A stretch of DNA of 64,000 nt from Acidimicrobiia bacterium (GCA_028376655.1 JAONAZ010000004.1:1201-65200); one strand, 5' to 3'. Counted from the first letter of the stretch, positions 14,501 through 64,000 are shown. Made by a program: numbers and translations. The notes: a model not told the origin generated them from the sequence alone.

Positions 14501-15877
14501 TTGAGTATCACCTCTTTCGACAATTTAATCATAGATTATATAAAAAGAGATGTTTCTCTTGATGAAGAAACTATCTTTTCAGTAAAATTAGCACTCTTGG
14601 ATACTCTTGGATGCATTTTCAACGCTGCTTCAAGTCCACAACCCGTTTCTTTCGCAACAACAGGACAGTACTCTGAGATTGGTAATCCCTTCGAGCTATC
14701 TAAAAACATCACTGATCCCAGAGATCTTGGAAAATTTTTTACAACATTAATTCGTTGGTACGATTACAACGATACTTTTTTAGCAAAAGAATGGGCTCAT
14801 CCATCAGATAATATTGGAACATCGCTTTCGTATTTTATGTCTAATGGAGGCTCATTTAAAGAATTCTCAGAATCTATTGTTAGAACATATGAGATACAGG
14901 GATCTCTTTCAGTAGGAACTTCCTTAAATAAAGAAGGTTACGACCATGTTTTTTTTGTCAAGATGGCTTCAGGAGCAATTTATGCTAGTTTGCTATCAAA
15001 AGGAAACGAAGAGATTATTAGAAGAACAGTCAATAATATTCTCCTGGATGGGCCTACATTAAGAGCCTATAGACATGCTCCAAATGTAGGTAAAAGAAAA
15101 AGTTGGGCTGCTGGAGATGCAGTTTCGAGAGCAATTGAAATATCTAAAATTTCAAGTTTAGATGACGAGAAATACAATGGAATTTTAAAAGATTCAACAT
15201 GGGGGTTCGAAAATATTTACCTTGAAAATACAGAAATAACCTTTGGCAAACCTCTTGATAATTGGGTTATAAATAATGTCCTTTTTAAAGTTTTGTACCC
15301 TGCAGAATTTCATGGACAATCTGCTGTTGAGGCTGCTGTACAACTTGCTGAGGAGTATCAATCAAAAAAAAATATTGTTAAGGATATTATTATTGAAACT
15401 CACGAACCGGCCATAAGAATAATTAGTAATAAAGATGTATTAATGAATTCCTCTGATAGAGATCACTCGCTTGAGTATATGGTTGCAGCTGCACTATTAT
15501 TTAATGATGTAACCAGTGAAACTTATGAAGAATCATTTCATGGCTATGCAGATATTGAAAAATTAAGAAAGAAAATCACTGTTATGGAAGACCCTGATTT
15601 TACTAAAACATACTATGAATTTGAAAAAAGAGAGATTGCAAATAGAATCTACTTGAATTTTGAAGATGGCACTCAATCTGAAAAGATTACTGTTAGATAC
15701 CCTATTGGACATCCAAAAAGACGTGATGAAGCTGTTCCCCTGATACAAGAAAAGTTCATGAAAAATACTTCAAATCATTTTGACAAAGATAAGGCAAATA
15801 AAATATGGAATTCTATTCTTAATTTCGAAATGAATACTGACTTCAACAATTTAGTTAATCTGTTAGTAGATGAGTAA
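14501..15877 (+). CDS. prpD: MmgE/PrpD family protein, probable 2-methylcitrate dehydratase
   Basis: Length (458 aa) and overall sequence fit the PrpD family. It is adjacent to the citrate-synthase-family gene. Confidence 0.75.
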   Translation: MSITSFDNLIIDYIKRDVSLDEETIFSVKLALLDTLGCIFNAASSPQPVSFATTGQYSEIGNPFELSKNITDPRDLGKFFTTLIRWYDYNDTFLAKEWAHPSDNIGTSLSYFMSNGGSFKEFSESIVRTYEIQGSLSVGTSLNKEGYDHVFFVKMASGAIYASLLSKGNEEIIRRTVNNILLDGPTLRAYRHAPNVGKRKSWAAGDAVSRAIEISKISSLDDEKYNGILKDSTWGFENIYLENTEITFGKPLDNWVINNVLFKVLYPAEFHGQSAVEAAVQLAEEYQSKKNIVKDIIIETHEPAIRIISNKDVLMNSSDRDHSLEYMVAAALLFNDVTSETYEESFHGYADIEKLRKKITVMEDPDFTKTYYEFEKREIANRIYLNFEDGTQSEKITVRYPIGHPKRRDEAVPLIQEKFMKNTSNHFDKDKANKIWNSILNFEMNTDFNNLVNLLVDE

Positions 15878-16727
15878 CATACTATATTTGCTAGTTGGCG
15901 GTGAAGCAACCAGACTGAAGCCACTATCAGAAGGAATACCAAAGGCTCTCCTTACTGTAAAAGACACACCCATAATGGATTTAATACTTCAAAACCTACA
16001 AAGTGCTAATTTTGACAAATTTAAATTAGTTTGTTCTATAAAACACCAAGAACAATGGGAAAACTATAAGAGTACATCTAAATTTGAAGTGGAACTCCTT
16101 TTTGAGACTCAAAAACTTGATACAGCTGGATACATGATTCAAAATATCCATCAATTTGAAGAAAGTTTCTTTTGTATGAATGGTGATTTACTCTTGGAAA
16201 TGGACTTTGAAAAGTTTCTAGACCACGTTGGGTCTGTTCCTAATTCAACTATTTGCTCTGTCCAAGTTGATAATCCTTCTAGGTTCGGAGTTTTACATTT
16301 AGATAAGGAAAAAGTGGTTAATTTTATTGAAAAACCAGATGATTTAAAATATGGTAACAACATCAGTATGGGTTTTTACTATATAGTTAAGGAAGACATC
16401 CTAAGAATTAAAGAAAGCTTACCTATTCCAACTTCTTTTGAAAAAGACGTCTTTCCCGTTTTAGCACAAAATCTGTTACTAAATTGCTATAAAGTAGATG
16501 GAAAGATGATAGATGTAGGAACTATAGATTCTTATATTTACGCCCACACTGATGGTAATGACAATTGGATTGGAGACAATGTGGTGATTGGTTCTAATCC
16601 CAATATTAAAAACAGCATAATTTTTGAAAATTGTGTTATTGGCTCAGACGTAGTCATAACAAATTCCATTATCCGGAAAGATAATAAAGTCCCTGATAAA
16701 ACAAATCTTGAAAATGAAATATACTAA
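15870..16727 (+). CDS. Sugar-1-phosphate nucleotidylyltransferase (ManC-like)
   Basis: N-terminal LVGGEATRLKPLSEGIPKALL nucleotide-binding loop. C-terminal left-handed beta-helix hexapeptide repeats (IGDNVVIGSNPNIKNSIIFENCVIGSDVVITNSII). Confidence 0.8.
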   Translation: MSNILYLLVGGEATRLKPLSEGIPKALLTVKDTPIMDLILQNLQSANFDKFKLVCSIKHQEQWENYKSTSKFEVELLFETQKLDTAGYMIQNIHQFEESFFCMNGDLLLEMDFEKFLDHVGSVPNSTICSVQVDNPSRFGVLHLDKEKVVNFIEKPDDLKYGNNISMGFYYIVKEDILRIKESLPIPTSFEKDVFPVLAQNLLLNCYKVDGKMIDVGTIDSYIYAHTDGNDNWIGDNVVIGSNPNIKNSIIFENCVIGSDVVITNSIIRKDNKVPDKTNLENEIY

Positions 16728-16732
16728 ATAAC

Positions 16733-17668
16733 ATGAAATCTGAAAAAATATTGGTCACAGGGGGAGCAGGTTTCATCGGCTCTCATTTAGTAGAAAATTT
16801 AACAAACCAGGGCCATGAACTAATGGTAGTTGACAATCTTTTAAGTGGGAAAAAACAGAATATAGAACATATCATCAGCGACAATCTTTTTTTTGATGAA
16901 ATTGGTTCTGAGGAAATTCTAAAGAAGATTAAACATTTCAACCCAGACATTTGTTTTCATTTAGCTGCACAATCTTCGGTTGTTATTTCTGTTGAGGACC
17001 CAATGTTAGATTTTGAGCACAATATCCTACAACCCCTCCAGCTAATTAGAACGCTTTTATCAACAGACTGTAAAAAGTTTGTATTCTCATCATCTGGAGG
17101 TACTATTTTTGGCGAACCTGATATTATTCCAACTTCGGAAATAGATTTTGCTGGAGAGCCTGAATCACCATATGGAATATCTAAAAAAAGACTGAATGAA
17201 TTTATAGAATTATTATTTAGTAATAAAGAAAATACCACTTATTCAATTCTTAATTTTTCAAACGTATATGGACCTCGTCAAGATCCACATGGTGAAGCAG
17301 GGGTAGTATCAATTTTTACTAGTAAAATGATGAATAATTTGGAACCTACAGTTTTTGGTGACGGTGAACAAACTAGAGACTATATTTTCGTTCAAGATGT
17401 TGTTGATGCATTACTTTTATCTTCAACTATTGATGAAGATTTATTTTTGAATATTGGCACAGGTAATGAGACCTCGGTTAATGATTTAGTTTCAACCTTA
17501 AAAAGTACCATAGGCTATTTGGGTGAAGTTAAGTATGAGCCCAAAAGAGATGGAGAACTTTTAAGAAGTGTTTTGGATAATTCGAAAGCTAAAAAAGTTC
17601 TCAACTGGGAGCCTCAGTACTCGCTAGAAAGTGGGATTACGGAATTAGTTAATTGGCTGTCAGCCTAA
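16733..17668 (+). CDS. NAD-dependent sugar epimerase (GalE-like SDR)
   Basis: GGAGFIGSHL Rossmann motif and catalytic YxxxK (PYGISKK). Size is 311 aa. Confidence 0.85.
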   Translation: MKSEKILVTGGAGFIGSHLVENLTNQGHELMVVDNLLSGKKQNIEHIISDNLFFDEIGSEEILKKIKHFNPDICFHLAAQSSVVISVEDPMLDFEHNILQPLQLIRTLLSTDCKKFVFSSSGGTIFGEPDIIPTSEIDFAGEPESPYGISKKRLNEFIELLFSNKENTTYSILNFSNVYGPRQDPHGEAGVVSIFTSKMMNNLEPTVFGDGEQTRDYIFVQDVVDALLLSSTIDEDLFLNIGTGNETSVNDLVSTLKSTIGYLGEVKYEPKRDGELLRSVLDNSKAKKVLNWEPQYSLESGITELVNWLSA

Positions 17669-19295: not shown

Positions 19296-19550
19296 ATGGT
19301 AGATAAAGAAATTATAGAAGCAATTGCAGAATTAAATGAATCAGAATTGAAACGATTGAAGCTACTTATCGATAACAAATTAAATTTAGACATGAATAAG
19401 AATAAGATTTCCTATCGGAGCAAAGATATAAAGTGTGGTAGAGAGTCTTGTAATTCATGTCCTCACGGTCCATATTGGTATGCTGAATGGACAGAAAATG
19501 GTAAAAGAAAAACAAAGTATTTAGGAAAAATTTTAAATGAAATTTCTTAA
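19296..19550 (+). CDS. Small Cys-cluster protein, function unknown
   Basis: 84 aa with an N-terminal helical region, then CGRESCNSCPHGPYWYAEWTENGKRKTKYLGK (C-x4-C-x2-C-x-H). Overlaps the next gene by 14 nt, which suggests translational coupling. Confidence 0.55.
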   Translation: MVDKEIIEAIAELNESELKRLKLLIDNKLNLDMNKNKISYRSKDIKCGRESCNSCPHGPYWYAEWTENGKRKTKYLGKILNEIS

Positions 19551-21723
19551 AGTTAAAATAACTCCATATTTAACTCAGATTTATTTTTATTTGTTGGCAA
19601 TTTTAATTTTAAGACTAGATTTAGTATTTTTAAATACTATGCCAACCGGTGGAGACATGGGAGCACATGTAGTACCCATAAAATACTTCATAGAAAACTT
19701 TGCGGCAGATTTTCAACTCAATGGTTGGTCCAACGATTGGTTTGCTGGCTATCCTCTATATTTTTTCTATTTTCCTCTTCCGGCATTAATTACATTCATG
19801 TTAAATTTATTCATTACTTACTCGATAGCGTTCAAAATAATGGTAGTTGGATCAATTATTCTTTCTATTTATTCATTTGAAAAATTAATCAGAAAAAAGT
19901 ATGAAAAATTTTCTATTTTTGGTTTTATTGCTGGTTTAACATATGTTCTTACTGAATCTTTTACAATTTATGGGGGGAACTTAGCTTCCACACTAGCTGG
20001 TCAATTTTCATTTACTTATTCAATTGCCTTTGCTAATTTAGCAATTGCTATTATTACAAAGTCAACAAATAAAAATAAATTTGTAATAAGTGCAGTATTT
20101 CTGGGTTTGAGTTTATTAAGCCATTTAATTCCGTTTATCATCTATGGAGTAATTTACTTGTATTTCTGGATAAATTCCAAAGGTACATCTGTAGAGAAAT
20201 TTTCTTCAGCTTTAATATTTGTGGCAATATCTATAAGATTTATAACTTCATTAATTCTTAATCTAGATTTGACTACAAACATGAGTTACACACCATACTC
20301 AAAGCTGAGTGACCTTATCAAAAATGATATCTTACCTTTTTTAATAGTTTTCTTGCTAATTCTCTCATTCAATTTTAAACAAATTTATGAAAGAAAAATA
20401 ATTTCAATATTTGAATGGTTTATTTTAGTATCTTCAGTACTTCTTTATTTTTTCGTACCAGAAGGTGCATTATGGAATGGAAGAGTAATTAGTTTTTTTA
20501 ACTTAGGTGTTATAGTTTTATTTTTTAAATTGCTTCAATATACTATCGAAGTGTCTTTTAAGTATGAGCAGGGAACACTAATTTTAAAAATTTTAAGCCT
20601 TGTTATTATTGTAACCTATCTAGTTAACTTTTCTCAGAAGTGGAATACTATTGGATATAAAGAGTTTCTTTATCCAATGGCTCTTACAGTAATTTTTGGA
20701 TGCGTATATTTCTTTATATCATCCTTAAATTTATTTAAACTGGCTTTCGCAACATCAATAATTTTTACAATTTCATTCCTGCCATATTGGGTAAGTTGGA
20801 ATTTCAACGGATATGAAAATAAAGAGAATTGGAGTGACGTTGAAAATCTATACTCAGACTTAAATAATCTTCCTCCAGGTAGGATAATGTGGGAGCCAAA
20901 TTCTGATTTGAATAAATATGGAACGCCTATGGTTTTAATGACCATACCTTTATATACACACCATACAAGTATGGAGGGATTATATTTTGACTCAAGTATT
21001 ACGACTCCGTTTCATTTTATTGCAGTGTCAGGACTAGCAGAACGTCCTTCAAATCCTGTGGGGGGATTGAGATATATCAATAATGAATTTGAAAAAGGTC
21101 AGAAATATTTACAAGACTTAGGTGTTGATTACTTTATTTCATATACAGATTCAATTAAACAGAAAGCACTTGAAAATAAACAATTAAATTATCTCTTTTC
21201 ATCGGGCCCGTTTACTGTCTTTCAGATTAATTCAGAAAAAGTAGAGTTAGTTAATCAAAAATTAATTAAATTTGAAAAAATTTCATTTTCGGAAAGGACC
21301 CTCAGTTCTATATTCAGAAATACTACATATAAAAATTTTTTTGAAGCAGCATATGAAAATTTTAACAAACTAGATACTGAAAGAATAATTGAAGTCTCGG
21401 CTACAGACTCTATCCAACCTCCTGAAACCTCAGAGCTTGCTAATGTTACAAATCTCAAAATAAATTCAGATAGAATTTCTTTTAATACAGACATGCCAAA
21501 TAAATTGCATATTATTAAGATTTCATATTTTCCAAATTGGGAGATAATTAATGGAGCAGGTCCATACAGAATATCACCTTCATTTATGGCCGTAATTCCA
21601 TATTCAGAAAATGTAGAACTTAATTTTGTTAGATCTAGATATGAAACTTACTCATTCTATATCTCAATATCTTCATTACTATTATTTCTAGTTTTATTTA
21701 GAAAGAAAAATAATTATGTCTAA
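19537..21723 (+). CDS. Large polytopic membrane protein, putative GT-C-type glycosyltransferase
   Basis: 728 aa. The N-terminal ~430 aa are hydrophobic (about 12-13 TM segments), followed by a soluble domain of ~280 aa and a final TM segment. It is co-directional with, and overlaps, a GtrA-like gene, and sits next to a GT2 gene. The family assignment is inferred from architecture only. Confidence 0.6.
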   Translation: MKFLKVKITPYLTQIYFYLLAILILRLDLVFLNTMPTGGDMGAHVVPIKYFIENFAADFQLNGWSNDWFAGYPLYFFYFPLPALITFMLNLFITYSIAFKIMVVGSIILSIYSFEKLIRKKYEKFSIFGFIAGLTYVLTESFTIYGGNLASTLAGQFSFTYSIAFANLAIAIITKSTNKNKFVISAVFLGLSLLSHLIPFIIYGVIYLYFWINSKGTSVEKFSSALIFVAISIRFITSLILNLDLTTNMSYTPYSKLSDLIKNDILPFLIVFLLILSFNFKQIYERKIISIFEWFILVSSVLLYFFVPEGALWNGRVISFFNLGVIVLFFKLLQYTIEVSFKYEQGTLILKILSLVIIVTYLVNFSQKWNTIGYKEFLYPMALTVIFGCVYFFISSLNLFKLAFATSIIFTISFLPYWVSWNFNGYENKENWSDVENLYSDLNNLPPGRIMWEPNSDLNKYGTPMVLMTIPLYTHHTSMEGLYFDSSITTPFHFIAVSGLAERPSNPVGGLRYINNEFEKGQKYLQDLGVDYFISYTDSIKQKALENKQLNYLFSSGPFTVFQINSEKVELVNQKLIKFEKISFSERTLSSIFRNTTYKNFFEAAYENFNKLDTERIIEVSATDSIQPPETSELANVTNLKINSDRISFNTDMPNKLHIIKISYFPNWEIINGAGPYRISPSFMAVIPYSENVELNFVRSRYETYSFYISISSLLLFLVLFRKKNNYV

Positions 21724-22195
21724 TTTTCTTAATTTTTTGAGAGATACACCCCTAATTAATGGCGATAGTTCGCTAGCTCAATTAATTAGAACATATATAG
21801 TCGGAGCATTCAATCTACTGGTTGGTTTGCTTTCTAACTATATTTTTCAATTTTTTATTTTTAACAACATAGCTATACCGTTACGTACTTATTTAACTAA
21901 TGTTGGATCCTTTTCAATCGGTGTAGTCATTTCTTACTTTCTATCAAGAAGAATTATCTTTAAACTCTCCACAAATGAAGGTAGTTTTAAAGAATTTATC
22001 AACTTTGTTCTAACGAACCTAATTAATCTAATATTGCCTTTGATAATTTGGTATTTAATTGACATCTACAGACCATCAATTCAAGAAAGTGAGATACAAT
22101 TCATAATTGCTACTGTGTTGATCTCCAGTGTCATCTTGCCAATCAAATATGTGATTTATAGACTCTTTGTATTTAAAGACTCTCTAGATAATTGA
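21716..22195 (+). CDS. GtrA-like small membrane protein
   Basis: 159 aa with 4 TM segments, matching the size and topology of the GtrA family. Overlaps its upstream neighbour by 8 nt. Confidence 0.65.
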   Translation: MSNFLNFLRDTPLINGDSSLAQLIRTYIVGAFNLLVGLLSNYIFQFFIFNNIAIPLRTYLTNVGSFSIGVVISYFLSRRIIFKLSTNEGSFKEFINFVLTNLINLILPLIIWYLIDIYRPSIQESEIQFIIATVLISSVILPIKYVIYRLFVFKDSLDN

Positions 22196-22890
22196 AGCCT
22201 TAATTTAAATAAACTTATAACTGTTCTTGGAATCCTATTATAAATCACAGACACACTGGGCCTGATTTCATTTACAACAGCAGGAATTTCAAGAATCTCA
22301 TCTCCACTCTTCTCAATTCTTATTAATAGTTCTGTATCAAAAAGATCTTGAGTCGAAACAACATTCTCAATCTGGCTTTTAATTGACTTACGCCTTACAG
22401 CTTTCATGCCATGTGTATCTGATAATTTTGTATTAAAGAGTATTTTTAAAATCTTTACAAAAGTAAAAGTTGCAAGCCTTCTAATAAGCCCTCTTCCGTC
22501 ATGAGATTTCACAAGTCGCTTGGACGCTGTAATGGCAGCAAATTTTCTGTTTAGTTTTAAAGCTTCATTTAGAAAATCTTCTGAAAAGTAATCTATATCA
22601 AATGAAATTACTATCTCACTTGTAGCACTAAGGAAGCCTTCCTTTAATGCATTGCCATAATTTGCTAAATCGATTGCTAGGATTTTGCATTCATTTTTAT
22701 CTAAAATGAATTGTTCAATTAAAGGTAGTGTTTGGTCCACAGATCCATTTTCAACAAAAATTAGCTCAAAGCCTATTTTTTGTCTTCTACAAATATCATA
22801 AATTTGTGTGGCAGAATGAATAATGATTTCTTCTTCGTTAAAGATAGGCACAACAACAGAAAAGTTTTTAACCGTAAAGTTGGTACCCAT
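22156..22890 (-). CDS. Family 2 glycosyltransferase, probable polyprenol-phosphate sugar synthase (GtrB/Ppm1-like)
   Basis: FSVVVPIFNEEE N-terminus typical of the GT-A fold, FVENGSVDQT, and a DxD-like FDIDY. Size is 244 aa. Confidence 0.8.
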   Translation of the reverse strand: MGTNFTVKNFSVVVPIFNEEEIIIHSATQIYDICRRQKIGFELIFVENGSVDQTLPLIEQFILDKNECKILAIDLANYGNALKEGFLSATSEIVISFDIDYFSEDFLNEALKLNRKFAAITASKRLVKSHDGRGLIRRLATFTFVKILKILFNTKLSDTHGMKAVRRKSIKSQIENVVSTQDLFDTELLIRIEKSGDEILEIPAVVNEIRPSVSVIYNRIPRTVISLFKLRLQLSRESLNTKSL

Positions 22891-22911
22891 TATATGTACA
22901 ATAACTTAATA

Positions 22912-24252
22912 ATGGTTCAAAATAAACTAGATTTAATTTTTAAGGCCTACGATGTCAGGGGGGTATACGGAGAAACCTTGACTAAAGAAATTGCTTACAA
23001 TATTGGAATTGCGTTTAGTCAATTTATTGAAAGTGAAACAATTATTGTTGGTCACGATGGTAGAAATTCGAATCTAGAAATCTTTGATTGTGTTGCAGCT
23101 GGCATCACCAGCAACGATAAAAAAGTTTTCTATATTGGGACATTTCCAACAGATGTTGTTTACTCCCTTTCTGGAATAATGGACTTACCTGGTCTGATTA
23201 TTACCGCTTCTCACAATCCAAAAGAGTGGAATGGTTTTAAGTTTTGTAACTCGGGAGCATCCCCTATAGGAATTGAATCGGGCTTACTTGAAATAAAGGA
23301 ACTAGCTTCTCAAAACTATAAAGAACCATCTGGGCAGATAAATATAAATAAGGAAGATATTGTTTCTACTTATATCGACCATTTAAAAACAATTGTCCAT
23401 CCAGAAAATATAGATAGTTCAATTAAATTCGCAGTAGATGGTGGAAATGGAGCTATAGGATCTGTGATAGATAATTTAACTTCTGCATACAATTTGAATT
23501 ATCAAGGAATTTATATGGATGTCGATGGCAATTTCCCCAATCACCCTGCAGATCCATCGGATTCCGAAAATTTAGTAGAGCTCATTGAATTAGTTCAAAA
23601 GAATAAATATGAATTCGGAGTCGCCTTTGATGGGGACGCAGATAGAGCAGTCTTTTCAGATAACCAAGGAAATATTATCTCAGGAAGTATTATGACGGCG
23701 ATAATTTCAGATTGGCTTCTTGAAAAAAGAAAAATGATAAAAGTTGTTCACAACGTTAATGTACCTCCAACAGTAGTCAATTATCTTTCAGGTAAAGGTG
23801 TGCACATGATTAGATCTAAAGTAGGACACTCATATATCAAGCAAATTATGAGAGATGAAGATGCTGACTTTGGAGGGGAACATAGTGCACATTTTTACCT
23901 GAGAGAAAATTACTATGCCGATTCAGGAATATTGACATTGTTAATTTTCCTTCAAATTTTATCGGAAAAAAAGCAAACCCCATCAGAATTAATTTCAAAC
24001 TACAGCTTTTTTCCTTCATCCGGAGAAATTAATTTTGTAGTAAAAGATGTCAAAGAGAGTATTGCAAAAATTGAAGAGAGTTTTGATAAAAGCTTTGATA
24101 AATTAGATGGTATTTCATATTTTGAAGATAATTATTGGTTTAACATAAGGGGTTCAAATACTGAACCTAAATTAAGGTTAAATGCTGAAGCCGAGAATTC
24201 TAATCTCCTGAATGGCTTAATAAATAAAATTTCAAATATAATAGAGGAATAA
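22912..24252 (+). CDS. manB: Phosphomannomutase/phosphoglucomutase
   Basis: Active-site TASHNPKEWNG, Mg loop FDGDADR and sugar loop GGEHSAH. The tracked start at 22780 overlaps the GT2 gene by 111 nt. ATG 22912 (MVQNKLDLIFKAYDVRG) matches the usual N-terminus. Confidence 0.9.
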   Translation: MVQNKLDLIFKAYDVRGVYGETLTKEIAYNIGIAFSQFIESETIIVGHDGRNSNLEIFDCVAAGITSNDKKVFYIGTFPTDVVYSLSGIMDLPGLIITASHNPKEWNGFKFCNSGASPIGIESGLLEIKELASQNYKEPSGQININKEDIVSTYIDHLKTIVHPENIDSSIKFAVDGGNGAIGSVIDNLTSAYNLNYQGIYMDVDGNFPNHPADPSDSENLVELIELVQKNKYEFGVAFDGDADRAVFSDNQGNIISGSIMTAIISDWLLEKRKMIKVVHNVNVPPTVVNYLSGKGVHMIRSKVGHSYIKQIMRDEDADFGGEHSAHFYLRENYYADSGILTLLIFLQILSEKKQTPSELISNYSFFPSSGEINFVVKDVKESIAKIEESFDKSFDKLDGISYFEDNYWFNIRGSNTEPKLRLNAEAENSNLLNGLINKISNIIEE

Positions 24253-35175: not shown

Positions 35176-35484
35176 ATGAAAGATATAAACGCCGAAGAAT
35201 ATGCGGCATTACAAAACTCTACAACACCAGTAGTTATTGACTTCCATGCAACATGGTGTGGACCTTGTAAAGTATTAAGCCCAATTTTAGAAGAATTAGA
35301 GTCTGAAGTTGAAGATGTACAATTTGTAAAGCTTGATGTTGATCAATTCCCAGAAATCGCCGGGGCAAATCAGGTCATGGGTGTTCCAACAGTGGTCATT
35401 CTTAAAGACGGAGAAGTAAAAGAACGTTTTGTTGGTGTCCAACCAAAAGAAACAATAAAAGAAAAAATTACTGCTTTAAGTTAA
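35176..35484 (+). CDS. trxA: Thioredoxin
   Basis: 102 aa with the WCGPCK active site. Confidence 0.95.
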   Translation: MKDINAEEYAALQNSTTPVVIDFHATWCGPCKVLSPILEELESEVEDVQFVKLDVDQFPEIAGANQVMGVPTVVILKDGEVKERFVGVQPKETIKEKITALS

Positions 35485-35486
35485 TC

Positions 35487-35747
35487 ATGTTAAAACTTGT
35501 ACTTTTTCTACAAGTTATAATGCTTATTGTTCTGGCTTTTTTTGGTATTTTCGTTTATGAACAAGCTCAAATTGCGAGTGATAGTATAAATGATGCACTC
35601 ACTGTTATTGACGAAGTCAGTGCAATATTACCTAAACTTGATATCGCACTCGACAGCATCAATCAACTACAAAGTGTATTTGAAAGTTTAGAAAGCTTAA
35701 GTAATGTTTTATCATTACTAACAGACCCATTTAGCTCAGGAGATTAA
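35487..35747 (+). CDS. Small membrane-anchored coiled-coil protein, function unknown
   Basis: 86 aa with one N-terminal TM and then a heptad-like region. Packed between two thiol-redox genes with 2-nt and 1-nt spacing or overlap. Confidence 0.5.
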   Translation: MLKLVLFLQVIMLIVLAFFGIFVYEQAQIASDSINDALTVIDEVSAILPKLDIALDSINQLQSVFESLESLSNVLSLLTDPFSSGD

Positions 35748-35998
35748 TGAAGAATATAATCATGTACAGTACAGATTGGTGTGGAGATTGCGTAAGATCT
35801 GAAGCTTTGTTAAAATCTCTTAAAATAAATTTCGATGTAGTTGATGTCGATAAAGATGAAGTAGCTAATTCTTATATTCAAGAACTTCAAAATGGTGCAA
35901 GAAGAATACCAACAATAGTATTTCCAGATGATACTTTCCTAGTAGAGCCAACCGATATAGAACTTAGAGACAAACTTAAAGATTTAGGAACAATATAA
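35747..35998 (+). CDS. Glutaredoxin-like protein (mycoredoxin/NrdH type)
   Basis: 83 aa. IIMYSTDWCGDCVRSEALL has a CxxC active site. RRIPTIVFPDDTFLVEP matches the mycoredoxin-type cis-Pro region. Confidence 0.8.
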   Translation: MKNIIMYSTDWCGDCVRSEALLKSLKINFDVVDVDKDEVANSYIQELQNGARRIPTIVFPDDTFLVEPTDIELRDKLKDLGTI

Positions 35999-39017: not shown

Positions 39018-39581
39018 TTAATTAATTTTGTACCCTTTTTTATCGATAAAATTTTCTGGTTCAAGGCCTAACCCATCTGCTACTCGATTTATATAATTAA
39101 AATATGATACTATTTGGACTATTTCTGAGATTTCCTTATCGGTTAAATCATAATTAGAAAGTGTATCAATATCTAATTGAGAAATTGTGCTTGGCTGTAA
39201 TGTTAGTTTTTCTGCAAACAAACACATAGCTGTCTGCACCTTACTAATAGAACTATTTTTCCAATTATCCGCTATTTCATCTATGAGTTTTTGGTTTTGA
39301 GTCTCCGACCGGAGGTCATATAAGTGAGATCGTACTCAATATTCGCATTCATTTGCTACTGAAGTTACAACAGCTAATAGTTCTCTATCAAATCTAGTTA
39401 TCTTAGAATTTCCATACATTGTAGAGCTGTAAAGTCGCATAGAGTCTTGTAATATTTCGGGTGTTTGAGACTGTATAGTTAATACCTTCCAGAGACGACC
39501 AGCTCGTCTGATACCTTTTTCGTATTCTTTTTTTAATAAGCCGGTGGAGTCTTCAAAATTAAAAATATTAATAAACGTCAT
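39018..39581 (-). CDS. Carboxymuconolactone decarboxylase/AhpD-like peroxidase-related protein with in-frame UGA at the CxxC position (candidate selenoprotein; alternatively a pseudogene)
   Basis: Tracked ORFs 39336..39617 and 39018..39239 are in the same frame. The only stop between them is TGA at 39338-39336. The joined product reads ...AVVTSVANECEY[TGA]VRSHLYDLRSETQNQKLIDEIADNWKNSSISKVQTAMCLFAEKLT...SYFNYINRVADGLG. This matches the family pattern A-N-x-C-x-Y-C-x-x-x-H, with the TGA replacing the second Cys. The likely start is Met at 39581 (MTFINIF), which avoids overlap with the divergent gene. Confidence 0.6.
39299..39317 (-). promoter_or_regulatory. Candidate bacterial SECIS-like hairpin downstream of the in-frame UGA
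   Basis: The RNA (minus strand) reads GA-C-CUCC-GGUC-GGAG-AC-UC. It has a 4-bp G/C-rich stem, a GGUC tetraloop, and 2 further base pairs beyond a small internal loop. The first loop G lies 26 nt after the UGA. It is conspicuously GC-rich in an AT-rich gene. Confidence 0.45.
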
Positions 39582-39611
39582 ATTTAGTATTTTTGCTTTA
39601 AAATTTAGATT

Positions 39612-40052
39612 ATGCAACTACCTATAGAATTAAAAAAAGCAATAGATGGAAATGCATTCTGTGCAATGGCTACGCATCTGAATACAGAAGAAATTCAAAA
39701 CCATCTTATGTGGATTGATTATCTTGGTGAAAACCTTATTATCAATACCGAAAAAGGTAGACAGAAAACTTATAATATTAGGACTGATAATAACATTTCA
39801 CTTGTTATTTTTGAACCTGAAGCAATGTATTCTAGCTGGGAAATAAGGGGCGAGGTTGAAGAGGTAATTGACGACGATACAGCAAATCACCATATTGATA
39901 AATTATCTAATAGGTATACAGGTCATCCTTACAATAGACAACACAATCAAAGTTGGAAAGAATCTCAAATTAAAGATCGGGAAATGTGGCTAATTAAAAC
40001 TAATAAGTTAATTTCTATGGTTAGACCTCAAGCTAAATCTGAGCCTGAATAA
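39612..40052 (+). CDS. Pyridoxamine 5'-phosphate oxidase-fold protein (possibly F420-dependent)
   Basis: 146 aa with a split-barrel-like pattern (NAFCAMATHL...HLMWIDYLGENLIINTEKGRQKTYNIR...ISLVIFEP). The assignment is tentative. Confidence 0.55.
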   Translation: MQLPIELKKAIDGNAFCAMATHLNTEEIQNHLMWIDYLGENLIINTEKGRQKTYNIRTDNNISLVIFEPEAMYSSWEIRGEVEEVIDDDTANHHIDKLSNRYTGHPYNRQHNQSWKESQIKDREMWLIKTNKLISMVRPQAKSEPE

Positions 40053-40720: not shown

Positions 40721-41060
40721 GGGGGTGAACTGGCTTCGACTTTGAAGTGAGTCTCTCAGTAGCGAGCCGAGGGTCCTAGGGCCTCGTTAAAAACGTAGGA
40801 AAACAATATAATTGCCAAACCTAAATTGGCTATAGCCGCTTAATGCGACTCGTCGACCATCGGGGCTCCCACCTCGGGTGGTATCGGCGTCGAAATGTGG
40901 GATGCTAAGTTAAGCTACCGATTAACTTTTAAGATTAAGGTAGAAAACTTTTGAGAATATGTCTCTGGTGTCTTTCTCAAAAGTATTAACACCAGATGCG
41001 CTCGGAGAAACTGTTAGGTAGCTTAAAAGGACCGGGGTTCGACTCCCCGCACCTCCACCA
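40721..41060 (+). ncRNA. ssrA: tmRNA (SsrA)
   Basis: The 5' end GGGGGUGAACUGGCUUCGAC pairs with the 3' end CACCUCC-ACCA and includes the G3:U alanine identity pair. The T-arm is GGGGUUCGACUCCCC and CCA is encoded. The tag ORF ends ...GCC AAA CCU AAA UUG GCU AUA GCC GCU UAA (40841-43), giving (ENNII)AKPKLAIAA. The resume codon is uncertain: GAA 40799 directly after an in-frame UAG, or GCC 40814. Confidence 0.93.
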
Positions 41061-58698: not shown

Positions 58699-58781
58699 CC
58701 CAACGCTAAATTAAACATTTTTAATATTTAATATTGTCTTAGAATATATTCTACTCTAAAATAGTCTTAATAAATAAAAAT

Positions 58782-61700
58782 ATGATAAATCAAGTTATTG
58801 GTGTGCTTTTGTTTGCTCCTAAAGTATTTAGGAGTATTTTTCGTATATCTACTTTGAAAAAATTACTGTCTGTAACCTTATCTTTTATCATGCTTGTATC
58901 TATTGCCTATACATTTATTGAGACAGTAGATCCTGAACCGGCTTTTGCATCGGGAGAGTTTAATTGTGTAGATAGTGACGGACGAACCTATATATATCAA
59001 AGTACCTGGTCTAGCGGAACTCTAACAATCAATAGAGGAGTTAATAACGATGCAGGTAGTTTCAGCACTTCTGTTATAGAAACTTTTAGTTCATGGGATC
59101 TTGGAAACATTGACGAAGTTAATTCACTTAGCATTACCAGTGATGGTGAAATGTTTGCAATATTAAAAAGAACAAATACAACTCAAGCATACTTATATAA
59201 ATTAAATTATAACGCTTCCGGAAATGGAACAACTACACGCATATCATCCATAGATATAGGTACTGGTGATAACAATGCAGCCTCAAATTATGAAGTTACT
59301 ACAGGTGGAACAACTTATAAATATATTTTCACTTCAAAAGGTTTCTTTAATGGAAATCAAAAAGTAATCCGAATTAATGGTGATGGCTCATACAAAGTAA
59401 TCACTCCAACAATTACAAATGGAGGCAATGGATCCAATAAAGCAAAAGACTTTGCTTGGGTTTCAAATCATCCATCTGGTAATGACTTTGTTGGATATGA
59501 TTCAAGTAATAATGATTTACTTGGAGCTGAGATAACAGCTCATACCAACCATGGAGCTAGCAACGAAGCCATAACAATTGATTTGAGTGTAATTAATGGA
59601 AATATTGGAAGTGGCATAGGTTCAAACTCAGGTGCAGCAATGTCACTTGGCAATGGTGATGTATATTTCTTAGAAAACTCAACTGGAGATCTCTGGTTAT
59701 ATGATCAGTCTGCAGGCTCATTAACAGAAACTAATGATGACTTTAGTAGTTCCAGTAATACTGATGGTGCAGGTTGCGGTATTGGTCTTTCAGGAAACGA
59801 TGAATGGGTTCCTGCATTTTCTGCTGCACAAGGTTCATGTAGTGGTAGTAATAAAACTGTAGCTGTAACACTTAATAACTCTGGTAGTGATGAAGCGGCG
59901 AATTATGTTGTCACGTATACTATCGCTTCAAGTACATCCACCCTTACATCAGGTACAAGTGTAAATGGAGGTGCGAGCAATACCTCGCTCTCTGTACCGG
60001 CACAGGCTAATGGAACATCAGTACAATTAAATTGGTATGCAGAAAATAGCACGTATGGACTCCGGTCGCCCTCGTCAGGTACGACTAGTGTCACAATATC
60101 TGTAGATGCATCTAGTTGTTCTTCAGATGTGACATGGAGTATCTCGACTACAGTCAATACTTGTTGGCTTGGACGAGCAAATGTATCAATAGCATTTGCC
60201 GCCAGTGCAAGTGGTAACACACAGTACTTTGATGTGGAATGGTCTACAGACCAATCAAACTGGACTAGCTTAGTCGATGGAGGTGCATTAGCAGCAGGTG
60301 ATACAGATACTTATACAACAACAGCTGTTAACGATGGAGGAACTGTCTACTTTCATTACAGATACGGTGACTCCAATCCATCTTCAGGGTCTTGGTTAAC
60401 TACAAATGTAACAAATAGAACTATTGATTGTGACCTAATGATAACTGTATCTACTTCATTAGGCTCTTGTTCTAATGGCTCAGCTACAACAACTGTTTCT
60501 TTTGTGGCAAGTGATAACGGTAACACACAGTATTACGATCTTCAGAGACGTGTTGATAGTGGTTCATGGGTTACCATTTTAGATGGAGAGTCAATAGCTG
60601 GGGGAGAGACCAATAATCATACCGCCACTTTAGGTAGCGGAGCATATGAATGGCAGTATAGAATTGGTGATTCCAATCCATCATCGGGCAGTTATACATC
60701 TAATGGTATTAGTGGATCTACATTAACTTCGAGGACTGTAGATTGTGATGTTACATTTACAATTTCAACTTCAATTAATTCTTGTTCCAGTGGAGCAGCA
60801 ACAGTTTCAATTGCATTCGCAGCAAGTGCTGCTGGAAATACGCAGTACTTTGATGTTCAATGGTCAACAGACCAATCAAACTGGACGAACTTAGTCGATG
60901 GAGGTGGTCTTACTTCAGGCGATACGGACACCTATACAACATCAGCTGTTGCTGATGGAGCAACCGTCTATTTCCAATATAGATATGGTGACTCCAATCC
61001 ATCTTCAGGATCTTTTGTGAATACAAATGTTACAAACAGGACCATAGATTGTGATTATATTGATCTCTCTTTCTCTGAAAGTTTTTCAAGCTGTTCAAGC
61101 GGGGCTAAGACAGCTACATTTGCAATTACAAATAGTAGCTCAGCTACTACACATGCCTTTTTGCTCGTAGAGTATTCCACAGATGGTGGTTCTAGTTGGA
61201 CACAAAAAGTTGCTAATCAAGAAGTAGAAGAAAATGAGACAATAAATCTCACACAATCAGTTGCACACGGCCAAACTATCCAGTGGAGATATAAAACCTC
61301 TATATCTTCAGGATCTTTTACTGGTAGTTACACTGAGCGAACTGAAAGTTCAACTGTTAGCTGTCCCGTCATTGACTCATCAGTAAGTCAAGCATTAGGA
61401 AATTGTTCTAGTGGGGCTAAGGTCTCAACATTTACAATGAGCAACTCTGATTCTGCAAATACAGCAGCATACTTTAATGTTCAATATAAAATTGACAACG
61501 GCTCATATCAAAATGCTAGCAATACAAATGTTTCAGTTAGCGCAAACGGATCAGCAACATTAACTCAAAGTGTTCCTCATGGTTCAACAATTACCTGGCA
61601 GTATAGAACCTCAACCACCTCAGAGTCATTTAGTGGCAGCTACACTGCTATTTCTGCAAGCTCAGAGGTTGATTGCCCAGTTATTGATACCACTGTTTCC

Positions 61701-64000
61701 GATAGTTTAGGAAGTTGTTCAAGTGGATCTGCAACATCTACATTTACAATGAATAATAGTAATTCCGCAACTACGAATGCTTATTTTGAGGTTCAATACC
61801 AAGTGACTGATGCAGATGGTAATACGGGAGCCTGGCAGTCGAAACTTTCTAATCAATCAGTTGCTAAGAACGATTCCGAAACAACAACTCAATCTATAAA
61901 TGTGGGTGAGAAGATTAAATGGAAATATAGGACATCTACATCAAGTGGATCTTTCAGTGGCAGCTATACAGAAGAGGACTTAAGTTCTGCTGTCTCCTGC
62001 TCAATAGATATAGGAGCTTCTCAGTCTCTTGGCTCCTGTTCAGGTGCATCTAAAACTTCAACACTTACTATGACAAATAGCAACTCCGCAACAACTACAG
62101 CATATTTTAATGTTCAGTACAAAATTGATAATGGTTCTTATCAAACTCATTCAAGCGGGGCCAGTGTTTCAGTTTCTAAAAATGGCTCATCAGGCCTCAC
62201 ACAATCTGTACCAAATGGATCAACAATCACCTGGCAGTACAGAACATCACAGTTTAATGGTACGTTTTCAGGAAGTTATACAGCTATAAGTGCAAGTAGT
62301 ACCGTAAGTTGTACAACACCTGCAGCCTCAGCTTCTGCCGCAAGTTGCTCCAGTGGTTCTGGAAACATAACCATGACACTTGATAACTCAGATCAAGGTG
62401 CAGCTAATTACTTTAAAGTTCAATACACAACAGACAGTCCACTCGGTTCGCAAACTTGGTCTAATGGTATCGGAGGTTCTCATGTTCAGGTGGGTGCAGA
62501 TGCAACTTCAGATGTCACCTTAGCAAGTTCAGCTATTAGTCACGGCACTACGGTGTATTTAAGATATCAGACCTCGAGTTCCACAGATTTTTCTTCAGCA
62601 TCTACAACAACTTTAAGTAGTATCACAATTGACTGCCCAGTATTAAGTGGAACTGCTTCAGCTTCCGCAGCTAGCTGTTCGAGTGGTAGTGCTGCGGTTC
62701 CAATAACACTTAATAATTCAGGATCAAACATTGCAGGCGTCTTTACAGTTAGGTATTCAACTAATGGTGGCTCGAGTTATACAACGCTTACTGCTACCTC
62801 TGTTGCTGCAGGACAGACAGATACCTCATCACTCTCTATCTCGGCACAATCACATACAACTGCGGTAATAATTAAGTACAGTGTTGCAAACTCATCTGAA
62901 GGATTAAGTCAGTCAGAGGCAACATTATCAACCATAACTATTGACTGCGAGGTAATAAGTTTGACAGCTACAAAAGCAGCCGATGGTTGCAGTAATAATG
63001 GAACTGGTCAAGGTGGGGTATTTGGTAAAACAAAAATCAATATAGACAACAGTGGAAGCAATGTTGCTGTGAATGTACGGCTTCAGAAACAAACTACTAA
63101 CGCGGTTAGTGGGGATGTAACTACATGGGCATATTTTGCCAGTGGAACAACTGGTGGAAGTAGTGGTACTTCCATTAATGCTGGTGTTACGGATACTCAG
63201 TTTAGTTTTGATAGTCACGCACATGGAACAGGAATACAATATCGTTACTCAACTAATGATGGGTCAACCTGGACAGAGATTGGATCAAAAATTACTATGT
63301 CATGTGCAGGTGTTTCTACTGCGGTTGGAACATGCTCAGTTTCTAGTACTCAAACAACAACAATAACTCTTAATAGTGGCTCCCAAGCAACAGTATCAGT
63401 TTTTTACAGGGTAGAATATTCAACTAACAGTGGTTCTTCATGGACTGAATTAAAAAATGATGAGGAGGTTACGGCTAATTCATCTGAAACTTATAACGGA
63501 CCAGTGTTAGCTAATGGTGAAACTGTTCAATGGAGATATAGTTCCAGAAAATCTGGAACATCACATGATAGTTCCTCATGGGTAACGGATGAGACAGATA
63601 TACCTGGTGTAGATCCGACCCTTTCTTATACTGCTAATTGTCCAATTCAGAACCCTACAACCACAACCACAACCACAACTACAACTTCAACCACAACTAC
63701 AACTACAACTACAACTACAACCACGACTCTCCCTCCAACAACGACTACTACGCTCAAACAGGAGATATTTAAACCATCATTATTTGTAAACAGATCTTGT
63801 TCAGACGGTGGTGGAGCATCATTTGGGATTACAGCTCTAAATGTAAGTTCCACAGTGGGTGCAGATATTAGAGTAAAAGTCTGGGTAGACAGCAAAAGAG
63901 TATTCTTTAATACGTATAAAGTTGGCGCTAATAATAATATATTCATCACGTCTATTGGTGGTGTGCCAGAAGATTCTAATTTTAAGATAAAGATTGTTTT
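58782..64000 (+). CDS. Giant secreted/cell-surface repeat protein, 3'-truncated by the window edge (at least 1,739 codons); absent from the supplied ORF track
   Basis: Hand translation from ATG 58782 (the first ATG after an in-frame TAG at 58740) finds no stop through 63998. The N-terminal hydrophobic segment has a PEPAFA/SGE cleavage-like site. A non-repeat head of about 300 aa follows, then 12 tandem modules of ~104 aa, a poly-Thr linker, and at least one more module. Confidence 0.88.
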   Translation, partial: MINQVIGVLLFAPKVFRSIFRISTLKKLLSVTLSFIMLVSIAYTFIETVDPEPAFASGEFNCVDSDGRTYIYQSTWSSGTLTINRGVNNDAGSFSTSVIETFSSWDLGNIDEVNSLSITSDGEMFAILKRTNTTQAYLYKLNYNASGNGTTTRISSIDIGTGDNNAASNYEVTTGGTTYKYIFTSKGFFNGNQKVIRINGDGSYKVITPTITNGGNGSNKAKDFAWVSNHPSGNDFVGYDSSNNDLLGAEITAHTNHGASNEAITIDLSVINGNIGSGIGSNSGAAMSLGNGDVYFLENSTGDLWLYDQSAGSLTETNDDFSSSSNTDGAGCGIGLSGNDEWVPAFSAAQGSCSGSNKTVAVTLNNSGSDEAANYVVTYTIASSTSTLTSGTSVNGGASNTSLSVPAQANGTSVQLNWYAENSTYGLRSPSSGTTSVTISVDASSCSSDVTWSISTTVNTCWLGRANVSIAFAASASGNTQYFDVEWSTDQSNWTSLVDGGALAAGDTDTYTTTAVNDGGTVYFHYRYGDSNPSSGSWLTTNVTNRTIDCDLMITVSTSLGSCSNGSATTTVSFVASDNGNTQYYDLQRRVDSGSWVTILDGESIAGGETNNHTATLGSGAYEWQYRIGDSNPSSGSYTSNGISGSTLTSRTVDCDVTFTISTSINSCSSGAATVSIAFAASAAGNTQYFDVQWSTDQSNWTNLVDGGGLTSGDTDTYTTSAVADGATVYFQYRYGDSNPSSGSFVNTNVTNRTIDCDYIDLSFSESFSSCSSGAKTATFAITNSSSATTHAFLLVEYSTDGGSSWTQKVANQEVEENETINLTQSVAHGQTIQWRYKTSISSGSFTGSYTERTESSTVSCPVIDSSVSQALGNCSSGAKVSTFTMSNSDSANTAAYFNVQYKIDNGSYQNASNTNVSVSANGSATLTQSVPHGSTITWQYRTSTTSESFSGSYTAISASSEVDCPVIDTTVSDSLGSCSSGSATSTFTMNNSNSATTNAYFEVQYQVTDADGNTGAWQSKLSNQSVAKNDSETTTQSINVGEKIKWKYRTSTSSGSFSGSYTEEDLSSAVSCSIDIGASQSLGSCSGASKTSTLTMTNSNSATTTAYFNVQYKIDNGSYQTHSSGASVSVSKNGSSGLTQSVPNGSTITWQYRTSQFNGTFSGSYTAISASSTVSCTTPAASASAASCSSGSGNITMTLDNSDQGAANYFKVQYTTDSPLGSQTWSNGIGGSHVQVGADATSDVTLASSAISHGTTVYLRYQTSSSTDFSSASTTTLSSITIDCPVLSGTASASAASCSSGSAAVPITLNNSGSNIAGVFTVRYSTNGGSSYTTLTATSVAAGQTDTSSLSISAQSHTTAVIIKYSVANSSEGLSQSEATLSTITIDCEVISLTATKAADGCSNNGTGQGGVFGKTKINIDNSGSNVAVNVRLQKQTTNAVSGDVTTWAYFASGTTGGSSGTSINAGVTDTQFSFDSHAHGTGIQYRYSTNDGSTWTEIGSKITMSCAGVSTAVGTCSVSSTQTTTITLNSGSQATVSVFYRVEYSTNSGSSWTELKNDEEVTANSSETYNGPVLANGETVQWRYSSRKSGTSHDSSSWVTDETDIPGVDPTLSYTANCPIQNPTTTTTTTTTTSTTTTTTTTTTTTTLPPTTTTTLKQEIFKPSLFVNRSCSDGGGASFGITALNVSSTVGADIRVKVWVDSKRVFFNTYKVGANNNIFITSIGGVPEDSNFKIKIV
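59778..63641 (+). repeat. Array of 12 tandem coding modules (102-119 codons; four are exactly 312 nt), each with exactly two Cys
   Basis: Module ends (the terminal Cys codon) fall at 60119, 60431, 60746, 61052, 61364, 61676, 62000, 62312, 62636, 62948, 63305 and 63641. The recurrent pattern is C-x(9-20)-C-S-(S/G)-G...T-(F/L)-x-(M/L)-x-N-S...(Y/F)-F-x-V-(Q/E)-(Y/W)...G-x-T-(I/V)-x-(W/F)-x-Y-R...(D/S)-C. Confidence 0.85.
63657..63752 (+). repeat. ACN trinucleotide microsatellite encoding a T10-S-T13-LPP-T5 linker
   Basis: Read directly: aca acc aca acc aca acc aca act aca act tca acc aca act ... The antisense poly-Val ORF in the track (63647..63949 -) is its shadow. Confidence 0.9.

Follow-up and report, generated by a model that had tools for sequence, protein, structure and literature searches.

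A predicted AhpD-like selenoprotein gene of Candidatus Actinomarina, with a conserved hairpin downstream of its in-frame UGA codon

The gene at 39018..39581 and its protein family

The stretch of DNA analysed here (hereafter the window) comprises 64,000 nucleotides of an Acidimicrobiia bacterium assembly (GCA_028376655.1, JAONAZ010000004.1:1201-65200), has a G+C content of about 31-40% and carries on its minus strand, at 39018..39581, a gene for an AhpD-like, peroxidase-related protein of the carboxymuconolactone decarboxylase (CMD) fold that is interrupted by an in-frame TGA. An earlier note, made from the sequence alone, had proposed that the two minus-strand open reading frames (ORFs) into which an ORF finder splits this gene, 39336..39617 and 39018..39239, share one frame and are separated only by this TGA, that read-through would yield a peroxidase-related CMD-family protein of about 187 residues and that the TGA replaces a Cys of the redox motif, making the gene a candidate for a selenoprotein. 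The sequence and the ORF list bear out the layout, and the conservation of the TGA, the selection acting downstream of it and a hairpin in its immediate vicinity support the proposed reading: this is very probably a single intact gene whose UGA codon 82 is decoded as selenocysteine (Sec) under the direction of a selenocysteine insertion sequence (SECIS) element.

The minus strand from 39581 to 39018 forms a single continuous frame of 187 sense codons followed by TAA (39020-39018), and the sole stop within it is the TGA at 39338-39336. The start was assigned to ATG (M1) at 39579..39581 because the orthologues, like the database homologues, begin MAF/MTF-I-N/K; the upstream TTG at 39617, with which the ORF finder begins, was rejected on the same ground, every orthologue starting with MAF/MTF. 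Translated from ATG 39581, the read-through product is ...VTSVANECEY*VRSHLYDLRSE...SYFNYINRVADGLGLE... and its local active-site sequence is A-N-E-C79-E-Y-[UGA82]-V-R-S-H86. The first residue of the C-x-x-U redox motif, Cys79, is encoded by TGC at 39345..39347, the predicted Sec (second Cys position) by the UGA at 39336..39338 and the His of C-x-x-U-x-x-x-H, His86, by the codon at 39324..39326. Codons 83-114 (39240..39335) fill the interval from the UGA to the next start downstream, GTG at 39239, and include codons D89-T94 (GAC CUC CGG UCG GAG ACU, 39300..39317), in which a bacterial SECIS-type hairpin is predicted within the coding sequence on comparative evidence. The completeness of the gene is indicated by the frame, the family profiles, the matches of fold and ten full-length Actinomarina orthologues of like architecture.

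Profile searches were performed with Cys substituted at the TGA. The product matches the Pfam CMD family (PF02627, E-value 4.8e-10, 39.7 bits against a cutoff of 23) and, over residues 25-176 of its 178 positions, the NCBIfam profile for the 'peroxidase-related enzyme' (TIGR01926, 128.5 bits against a cutoff of 81.8). The score with TIGR00777, the profile for AhpD proper of the Mycobacterium tuberculosis type, is only 16.6 bits against a cutoff of 191.95, and that with NF041238 (AhpD_rel_CFYUT (seleno)protein) is 50.7 bits against 175, in a match limited to the C-terminal part of a 357-position profile. In a sequence search of the PDB, the top match is Deinococcus radiodurans DR1765 (6k40, E-value 3.4e-23), followed by 2oyo, 3c1l, 2pfx and 2prr (E-values to 8.5e-17). 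The AlphaFold2 model of a 92%-identical orthologue (P0001; predicted local distance difference test score 83.9), which stands in for the window protein, is all-helical and was matched by Foldseek to 6k40, 3c1l, 2pfx, 2prr and 2oyo with template modelling (TM) scores of about 0.8. These five proteins resemble the product in length and in the motif N-x-C-x-Y-C-x-x-x-H, share 23-30% identity with it and carry Cys where the gene here has Sec. M. tuberculosis AhpD (1gu9, 1lw1 and 1me5) shares the CMD/AhpD fold and an active site of the CxxCxxxH type, but is only a distant relative, the TM scores being 0.45-0.57, and no peroxiredoxin or ahpC gene adjoins the gene in the window; AhpD proper was rejected on these grounds together with the sub-cutoff TIGR00777 score. 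The product is a member of the 'peroxidase-related' AhpD-like subfamily. Of the label AhpD/CMD-like given in the earlier note, therefore, the CMD fold and the AhpD-like subfamily stand and AhpD proper falls.

In the PDB alignments, NRCVYCAVSH (6k40), NHCYYCLTAH (3c1l) and NKCFYCLVAH (2pfx) lie over NECEY-U-VRSH, so that the TGA occupies precisely the place of the second Cys in CxxCxxxH. It is also aligned with the second Cys in 2oyo and in the Cys-form homologues P0045 and P0050. His86 matches the His of the PDB homologues; its column is invariant in two alignments (A3 and A5) and nearly invariant (at least 90%) in another (A2).

Conservation of the UGA codon and of the hairpin that follows it

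The closest relatives in species-representative genomes are found in ten metagenome-assembled genomes (MAGs) and single-amplified genomes (SAGs) of 'Candidatus Actinomarina / Actinomarinales', with 71-91% amino acid identity; two of these loci (L003 and L005) are located on contigs of about 1.0 Mb. In each of the ten orthologues this codon is TGA, with zero further stops and zero indels over the 187 codons. Codon 82 is TGA in 11/11 independent Actinomarina assemblies, and none of the sequences of the Actinomarina clade has TGT or TGC there. A scan of metagenomes with a divergent member of the family as seed yielded 80 loci from source organisms of 30-74% G+C, all of which have C-x-Y-TGA at the site, the Cys corresponding to Cys79 included. 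An error of assembly, or a TGA that is just a rare variant of TGT/TGC, which the earlier note had named as a possible undoing of its proposal, has only the general prior that single-base errors occur in its favour, while the TGA recurs in MAGs, SAGs, metagenomes and long-read assemblies obtained independently in many studies; the probability of such an error is negligible.

The frame beyond the TGA is likewise preserved, at least 89 open codons following it in 79 of the 80 metagenomic relatives. Synonymous sites among the orthologues are near saturation (synonymous divergence, pS, 0.58-0.73), and the ratio of nonsynonymous to synonymous substitution rates (dN/dS) downstream of the TGA is 0.02-0.23. 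For codons 83-115, the pooled ratio of nonsynonymous to synonymous divergence (pN/pS) over 28 orthologue pairs is 0.21, with pS at 0.62-0.75, and equals that of the remaining C-terminal half. As this stretch precedes the first possible downstream start (GTG 39239), the ratio implies that it is translated. A pseudogene, or two small genes arising by a nonsense mutation and consisting of the N-terminal 81 residues and/or the C-terminal fragment from GTG 39239, would agree with the two ORFs of standard ORF calling and with the 104-residue C-terminal fragments called as genes in databases (P0058 and P0061). It would leave untranslated the very codons that are under constraint at near-saturated pS, and it would require the same nonsense mutation to be fixed throughout Actinomarina and the 80 distant relatives, 79 of them free of a second stop or frameshift, with the break falling exactly on an active-site residue. 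Such an origin is very improbable, in agreement with the view of the earlier note that the downstream frame is intact and no old pseudogene. The conservation of the TGA, the intact frames and the purifying selection together thus effectively exclude sequencing error, polymorphism and pseudogenisation.

The lone exception among the 80 loci, L211 (match 1501-2070), has a TAG 12 codons past the UGA, right after the hairpin, and is a possible pseudogene or sequencing error.

A conserved hairpin of the SECIS type, for which the earlier note had suggested looking, is present past the TGA. It begins 21 nucleotides (nt) past the UGA in the codons for the peptide D-L-R-x-E-(V/T), with the pattern GAC CUC / CGN NNN / GAG GUC. 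In Actinomarina the core, CUCC-GGUC-GGAG (39314..39303), closes on a GGUC tetraloop and folds as (U/C)CUCC-GGUC-GGAG(A). The 14 nt CTCCGGTCGGAGAC, starting 24 nt past the TGA, show no nucleotide difference among the 11 Actinomarina sequences, with the flanking third positions free to vary. Each of L90 (CTC), R91 (CGG), S92 (TCG) and E93 (GAG) is specified by one codon across all 11 sequences; in the long ORFs of the window the shares of these codons within their synonymous families are just 6.7%, 2.1%, 5.0% and 28.8%, giving a joint expected frequency of about 2e-5 for CTC-CGG-TCG-GAG in a genome of 33% G+C. Synonymous divergence is reduced accordingly, codons 89-94 having a pS of 0.21 and the other codons of 83-115 one of 0.75. 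The CUCC/GGAG stem is recovered by RNAalifold.

The hairpin extends to distant Sec-forms: at this place L028 (45% G+C) has GACCUC-CGUGCU-GAGGUU and L156 (70% G+C) has GACCUC-CGUGCC-GAGGGC. When 86 distinct Sec-form sequences were aligned without gaps (A4), with columns counted from the U of the UGA as 1, the six-pair helix of columns 22-27 with 34-39 had 94.6% of its cells paired, against 28-53% in controls in which the partner was slid. Compensatory changes from C-G to U-A are observed at columns 24/37 in 16 sequences and at columns 25/36 once (L233), with a G-U intermediate in L224. The position of the hairpin is constant in Sec-forms from 30% to 74% G+C, and the loops contain G (e.g. GGUC, CGUGCU, CGNNNN). 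The helix is a codon palindrome in which Asp (GAC/GAU) and Leu (CUC) face Glu (GAG) and Val/Ile (GUC/AUC).

The bacterial SECIS (bSECIS) model covers loop distances of 16-37 nt, a range within which the hairpin falls, and the GGUC loop is the same as that of the SECIS element of Escherichia coli fdhF. As in fdhF, the hairpin lies inside the coding region shortly after the UGA and its apical loop contains G and U; compared with that of fdhF, its stem is much shorter and its loop begins at nt 29, counted from the U of the UGA, rather than at nt 23. The original description of this selenoprotein family takes as a bacterial SECIS a small hairpin that directly follows the UGA and has G in its apical loop (PMC1088965), and both characters are found in the hairpin here, which on comparative sequence grounds is a predicted bacterial SECIS.

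Decoding of the UGA codon

TGA serves as an ordinary stop elsewhere in the window, as had been pointed out for the sucB stop at 1007-1009: among the 42 ORFs of at least 150 residues, 24 end in TAA, 12 in TAG and six in TGA, and ORFs of up to 988 residues are intact under genetic code table 11. A reassignment of TGA as in codes 4 or 25 was rejected for these reasons, and any decoding at codon 82 must therefore depend on context. A scan of the window for further TGA-split genes with two substantial halves gave none.

The insertion of Sec and the binding of SelB, as inferred here, would proceed as follows. The hairpin (U/C)CUCC-GGUC-GGAG(A), 21 nt past the UGA, would form in the mRNA as the ribosome nears, SelB.GTP.Sec-tRNA(Sec) would bind it and deliver Sec against the competing release factor 2, and UGA82 of this 187-residue thiol/selenol oxidoreductase of Ca. 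Actinomarina (COG2128/TIGR01926, CMD fold) would be read as Sec.

Several observations weigh against this decoding. The stem is short, with 4-5 base pairs in Actinomarina, and the post-UGA region folded alone is no more stable than shuffled sequences (z = 0.06); the argument for a SECIS is hence carried by the comparative evidence and not by thermodynamics. In the GC-rich relatives, GAC, CUC, GAG and GUC are merely the preferred codons for a conserved D-L...E-V peptide, so that an argument at the level of RNA has force only for the AT-rich lineages and where covariation is seen. Arg codons (AGA and CGA) occupy the site in two relatives, and the position is thus not absolutely Sec or Cys. The 64-kb window is without a tRNA-Sec, ARAGORN and Rfam having found only a transfer-messenger RNA (tmRNA) and a tRNA-Gln, and no SelA, SelB or SelD was seen on inspection by eye of its ORFs of at least 250 residues. 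Searches for an Actinomarina selD with DNA patterns on the genome records and in protein and representative searches found none among the matches listed. In particular, the DNA pattern MRLT...G-U/C-G-C-K gave Sec-type SelD only in MedAcidi-type Acidimicrobiales and Paracoccus among the matches listed, and the pattern L-T-x-F/Y-x3-G-G-U-A-G-K matched, among those listed, Chloroflexi, Planctomycetes and Zixibacteria and no Actinomarina. With the MedAcidi SelD as a protein query, the matches returned were confined to close or GC-rich relatives and included no Actinomarina, and a locus search with P0220 was dominated by matches to the universal DVYAMGGK motif. The AT-rich SelD candidates P0220, P0311, P0241 and P0316 were rejected, as they come from other sample types or have an N-terminus unlike the MRLT prefix reported for Actinomarina.

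The genes for the machinery have been reported for the genus: selC, selA, selD and a divergent, below-threshold selB are present in 84/84 complete Actinomarina genomes, with positions given in Table 8 of that work (Nielsen & Lui 2026, 'Actinomarina, resolved', bioRxiv 10.64898/2026.04.03.716425). Since the machinery was not recovered in the searches made here, its presence in Actinomarina rests on this one preprint, which is not peer-reviewed, and this too counts against the decoding proposed. The same preprint gives about five selenoproteins predicted by deep-Sep per Actinomarina genome and no significant SECIS matches, which it attributes to the Rfam models being largely eukaryotic and unsuitable in other ways. 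Its main text names only a 78-residue family, SelD and K07090, with no AhpD or CMD protein, and its supplement has no list of families (bioRxiv 10.64898/2026.04.03.716425). The earlier note had held a Sec-using streamlined actinobacterium to be notable in itself, and in the light of this report that is no longer new.

The absence of the machinery from the searches made here would also suit a recoding of UGA82 in which near-cognate decoding inserts one of the standard amino acids Trp, Cys and Arg, no Sec is involved and the hairpin just stimulates read-through. In addition, the relatives with AGA or CGA at the site retain the hairpin, and many full-length database proteins show Trp at this position. 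The Trp residues are artefacts of gene calling under code 4 on short contigs, as the DNA of P0056 and P0059 reads TGA, and TGA works as a normal stop in the window. The site is that of the catalytic Cys of the redox motif, and with Trp or Arg in this place the chemistry would be lost; the family, the motif and the type of hairpin are established features of selenoproteins, and selABCD genes are reported for the genus (bioRxiv 10.64898/2026.04.03.716425). Recoding to a standard amino acid is accordingly considered improbable, and decoding as Sec is favoured.

The AGA variant occurs in three contigs from different samples (L029-L031; gene at 5001-5582 in L029) and the CGA variant in L157 (601-1164). 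Both codons are one base from UGA and both variants keep a perfect 6-bp hairpin, GACCUC...GAGGUC; they may represent recent losses of Sec decoding. A broader interpretation, put forward only tentatively and rather doubtful as a whole, is that the clade with C-x-Y-U...H..DLRxEV...YFNYINR is essentially obligate for Sec, with its SECIS locked in the codon palindrome GAC CUC...GAG GUC over 30-74% G+C. Under the same interpretation, the AhpD-like gene could be a conserved core selenoprotein of Actinomarina that helps to explain the retention of a full Sec pathway in a 1.1-Mb genome, and the AGA and CGA variants with their perfect hairpin would mark lineages just past the loss of Sec decoding, or an unrecognised alternative decoding. 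All of these proposals stay, in kind, within known selenoprotein biology.

Some SelD genes encountered in the searches are themselves selenoprotein genes. These include those of the marine MedAcidi-type Acidimicrobiales, with MRLTQFSHGAG-U-GCK (L014-L027; e.g. L015, 4444-4488, minus strand), and three Sec-type SelDs of AT-rich lineages (L116, 306-1346; L154, 194-1147; L155, 118-1074), with CGG-U-AGK, CSG-U-ASK and LG-U-AAK. The CGG-U-AGK SelD is then followed by a hairpin with a GGUU loop. All of these Sec-type SelD genes have been truncated N-terminally by gene callers.

Relation to known families, probable function and other features of the window

Selenoproteins of this family have been known since 2005, and the earlier note was right that AhpD-like ones had been reported from marine metagenomes. 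Among the new selenoprotein families of the Sargasso Sea data, the 'AhpD-like protein' (COG2128, CxxU) was the largest, with 27 sequences and predicted bSECIS elements (Zhang, Fomenko & Gladyshev 2005, PMC1088965), and 'AhpD-like 1' was the fourth most abundant selenoprotein family of the Global Ocean Sampling (GOS) data, represented by 299 selenoprotein sequences from 37 samples alongside 902 Cys homologues (Zhang & Gladyshev 2008, PMC2398784). The gene in the window has the COG/TIGR family, the CxxU motif with Sec in the second position, the bacterial SECIS right after the UGA and the surface-ocean habitat in common with AhpD-like 1, differs from it in nothing of substance and, as far as can be judged from sequence, shows every testable defining feature of that family. 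Its product is thus very probably a genuine selenoprotein, of a kind already known, Sec use in Actinomarina having itself been reported in April 2026.

The additions to this knowledge are modest. The two metagenomic surveys assigned no organism, whereas AT-rich members of AhpD-like 1 are placed here in Ca. Actinomarina, their SECIS is made explicit by comparison as a D-L-R-x-E-V palindrome and the nearest 80 relatives all prove to be Sec-forms. With regard to the preprint of Nielsen & Lui (2026), which concerns the same genus, the hairpin fills the SECIS gap for one gene, and the conserved UGA and the constrained SECIS independently back its claim of Sec decoding in the streamlined Actinomarina. 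The main value is in annotation and ecology, and no new question is opened. Standard gene callers split or truncate the gene, public databases hold the 104-residue fragments and the Trp-translated copies, and an annotation ending at the TGA leaves 39240..39335 untranslated; recognition of the gene restores a probable peroxide-defence enzyme to one of the most abundant bacteria of the surface ocean.

In M. tuberculosis AhpD, the second Cys of the CxxC is the nucleophile and is activated by a His/Glu relay. By analogy, Sec82, standing in place of the second Cys in the active site C79-E-Y-U82-V-R-S-H86, would be the reactive residue and would be resolved by Cys79, cycling between a selenolate and a Cys79-Sec82 selenenylsulfide. 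The Sec enzyme might either reduce peroxides directly or re-reduce a partner peroxidase, with lipoyl-E2 or thioredoxin as candidate reductants. M. tuberculosis AhpD is reduced by lipoyl-E2 (SucB/DlaT) and Lpd and re-reduces AhpC (PMC8945050). A knockout of DR1765, the one close homologue that has been studied, is described as sensitive to H2O2, its complementation requiring the CxxC motif, in a secondary account (PMC8945050, citing Zhao et al. 2020). The product is, by analogy with these homologues, a probable peroxide-defence oxidoreductase.

The nearest Cys-form homologue, P0045 (L158, 3001-3570; 47% identity), is without the first Cys (N-S-T-R-Y-C), and only a weak remnant of the hairpin is left in its DNA. 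Its gene directly follows those for E1-alpha, E1-beta and E2 of a 2-oxoacid dehydrogenase, a setting which recalls the lipoyl-E2 dependence of mycobacterial AhpD and offers a hint by analogy. At the 5' end of the window, the C-terminus of a sucB-like E2 gene (with the TGA stop at 1007-1009) is directly followed on the plus strand by a 542-residue ORF (1006-2634) in which a LipB-type LplA-B_cat domain (residues 14-204) is fused to LipA (LIAS_N and Radical_SAM, residues 261-476); the E2 C-terminus and this fusion are a hint toward a reductant of the lipoyl type. A stretch without any ORF of at least 120 residues (35176-35998, plus strand) encodes a thioredoxin (35176-35484; 102 residues, WCGPC), an 86-residue hydrophobic protein and an 83-residue glutaredoxin/NrdH-like protein (35747-35998; WCGDC), and the thioredoxin and glutaredoxin-like genes, about 3 kb from the AhpD-like gene, encode possible redox partners.

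The local gene order is tmRNA, a gene for a 215-residue protein, a PNPOx-like gene, the AhpD-like gene and a DUF3152 gene, and is kept in L001-L010. The 215-residue protein has no Pfam match at an E-value of 0.001 or below, the conservation of neighbours over 95 loci is uninformative outside Actinomarina, and a scan for promoters and terminators gave nothing beyond chance. The tmRNA gene (40721-41060, plus strand; tag AKPKLAIAA) is about 1.1 kb from the AhpD-like gene and is found beside it in every Actinomarina locus that reaches far enough (i.e. not in L008 and three short metagenome loci), at around 1520-1860 in L001-L010, the tag in these relatives being AKPKLALAA or AKPKLAVAA. The synteny of the two genes is stable in a genus said to show little conserved gene order.

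Two further regions of the window were noted. An open frame of more than 1750 codons (58743-64000, plus strand) is still open at the last base of the window; apart from a weak match to Reelin_subrepeat-B, below threshold, it has none, and it probably encodes a giant surface protein. The stretch of lowest G+C content (0.307; 20001-24000) lies around a 728-residue multi-pass membrane protein (19537-21723), with sugar-nucleotide genes before it (15870-17668), and may be a small envelope-glycosylation island.

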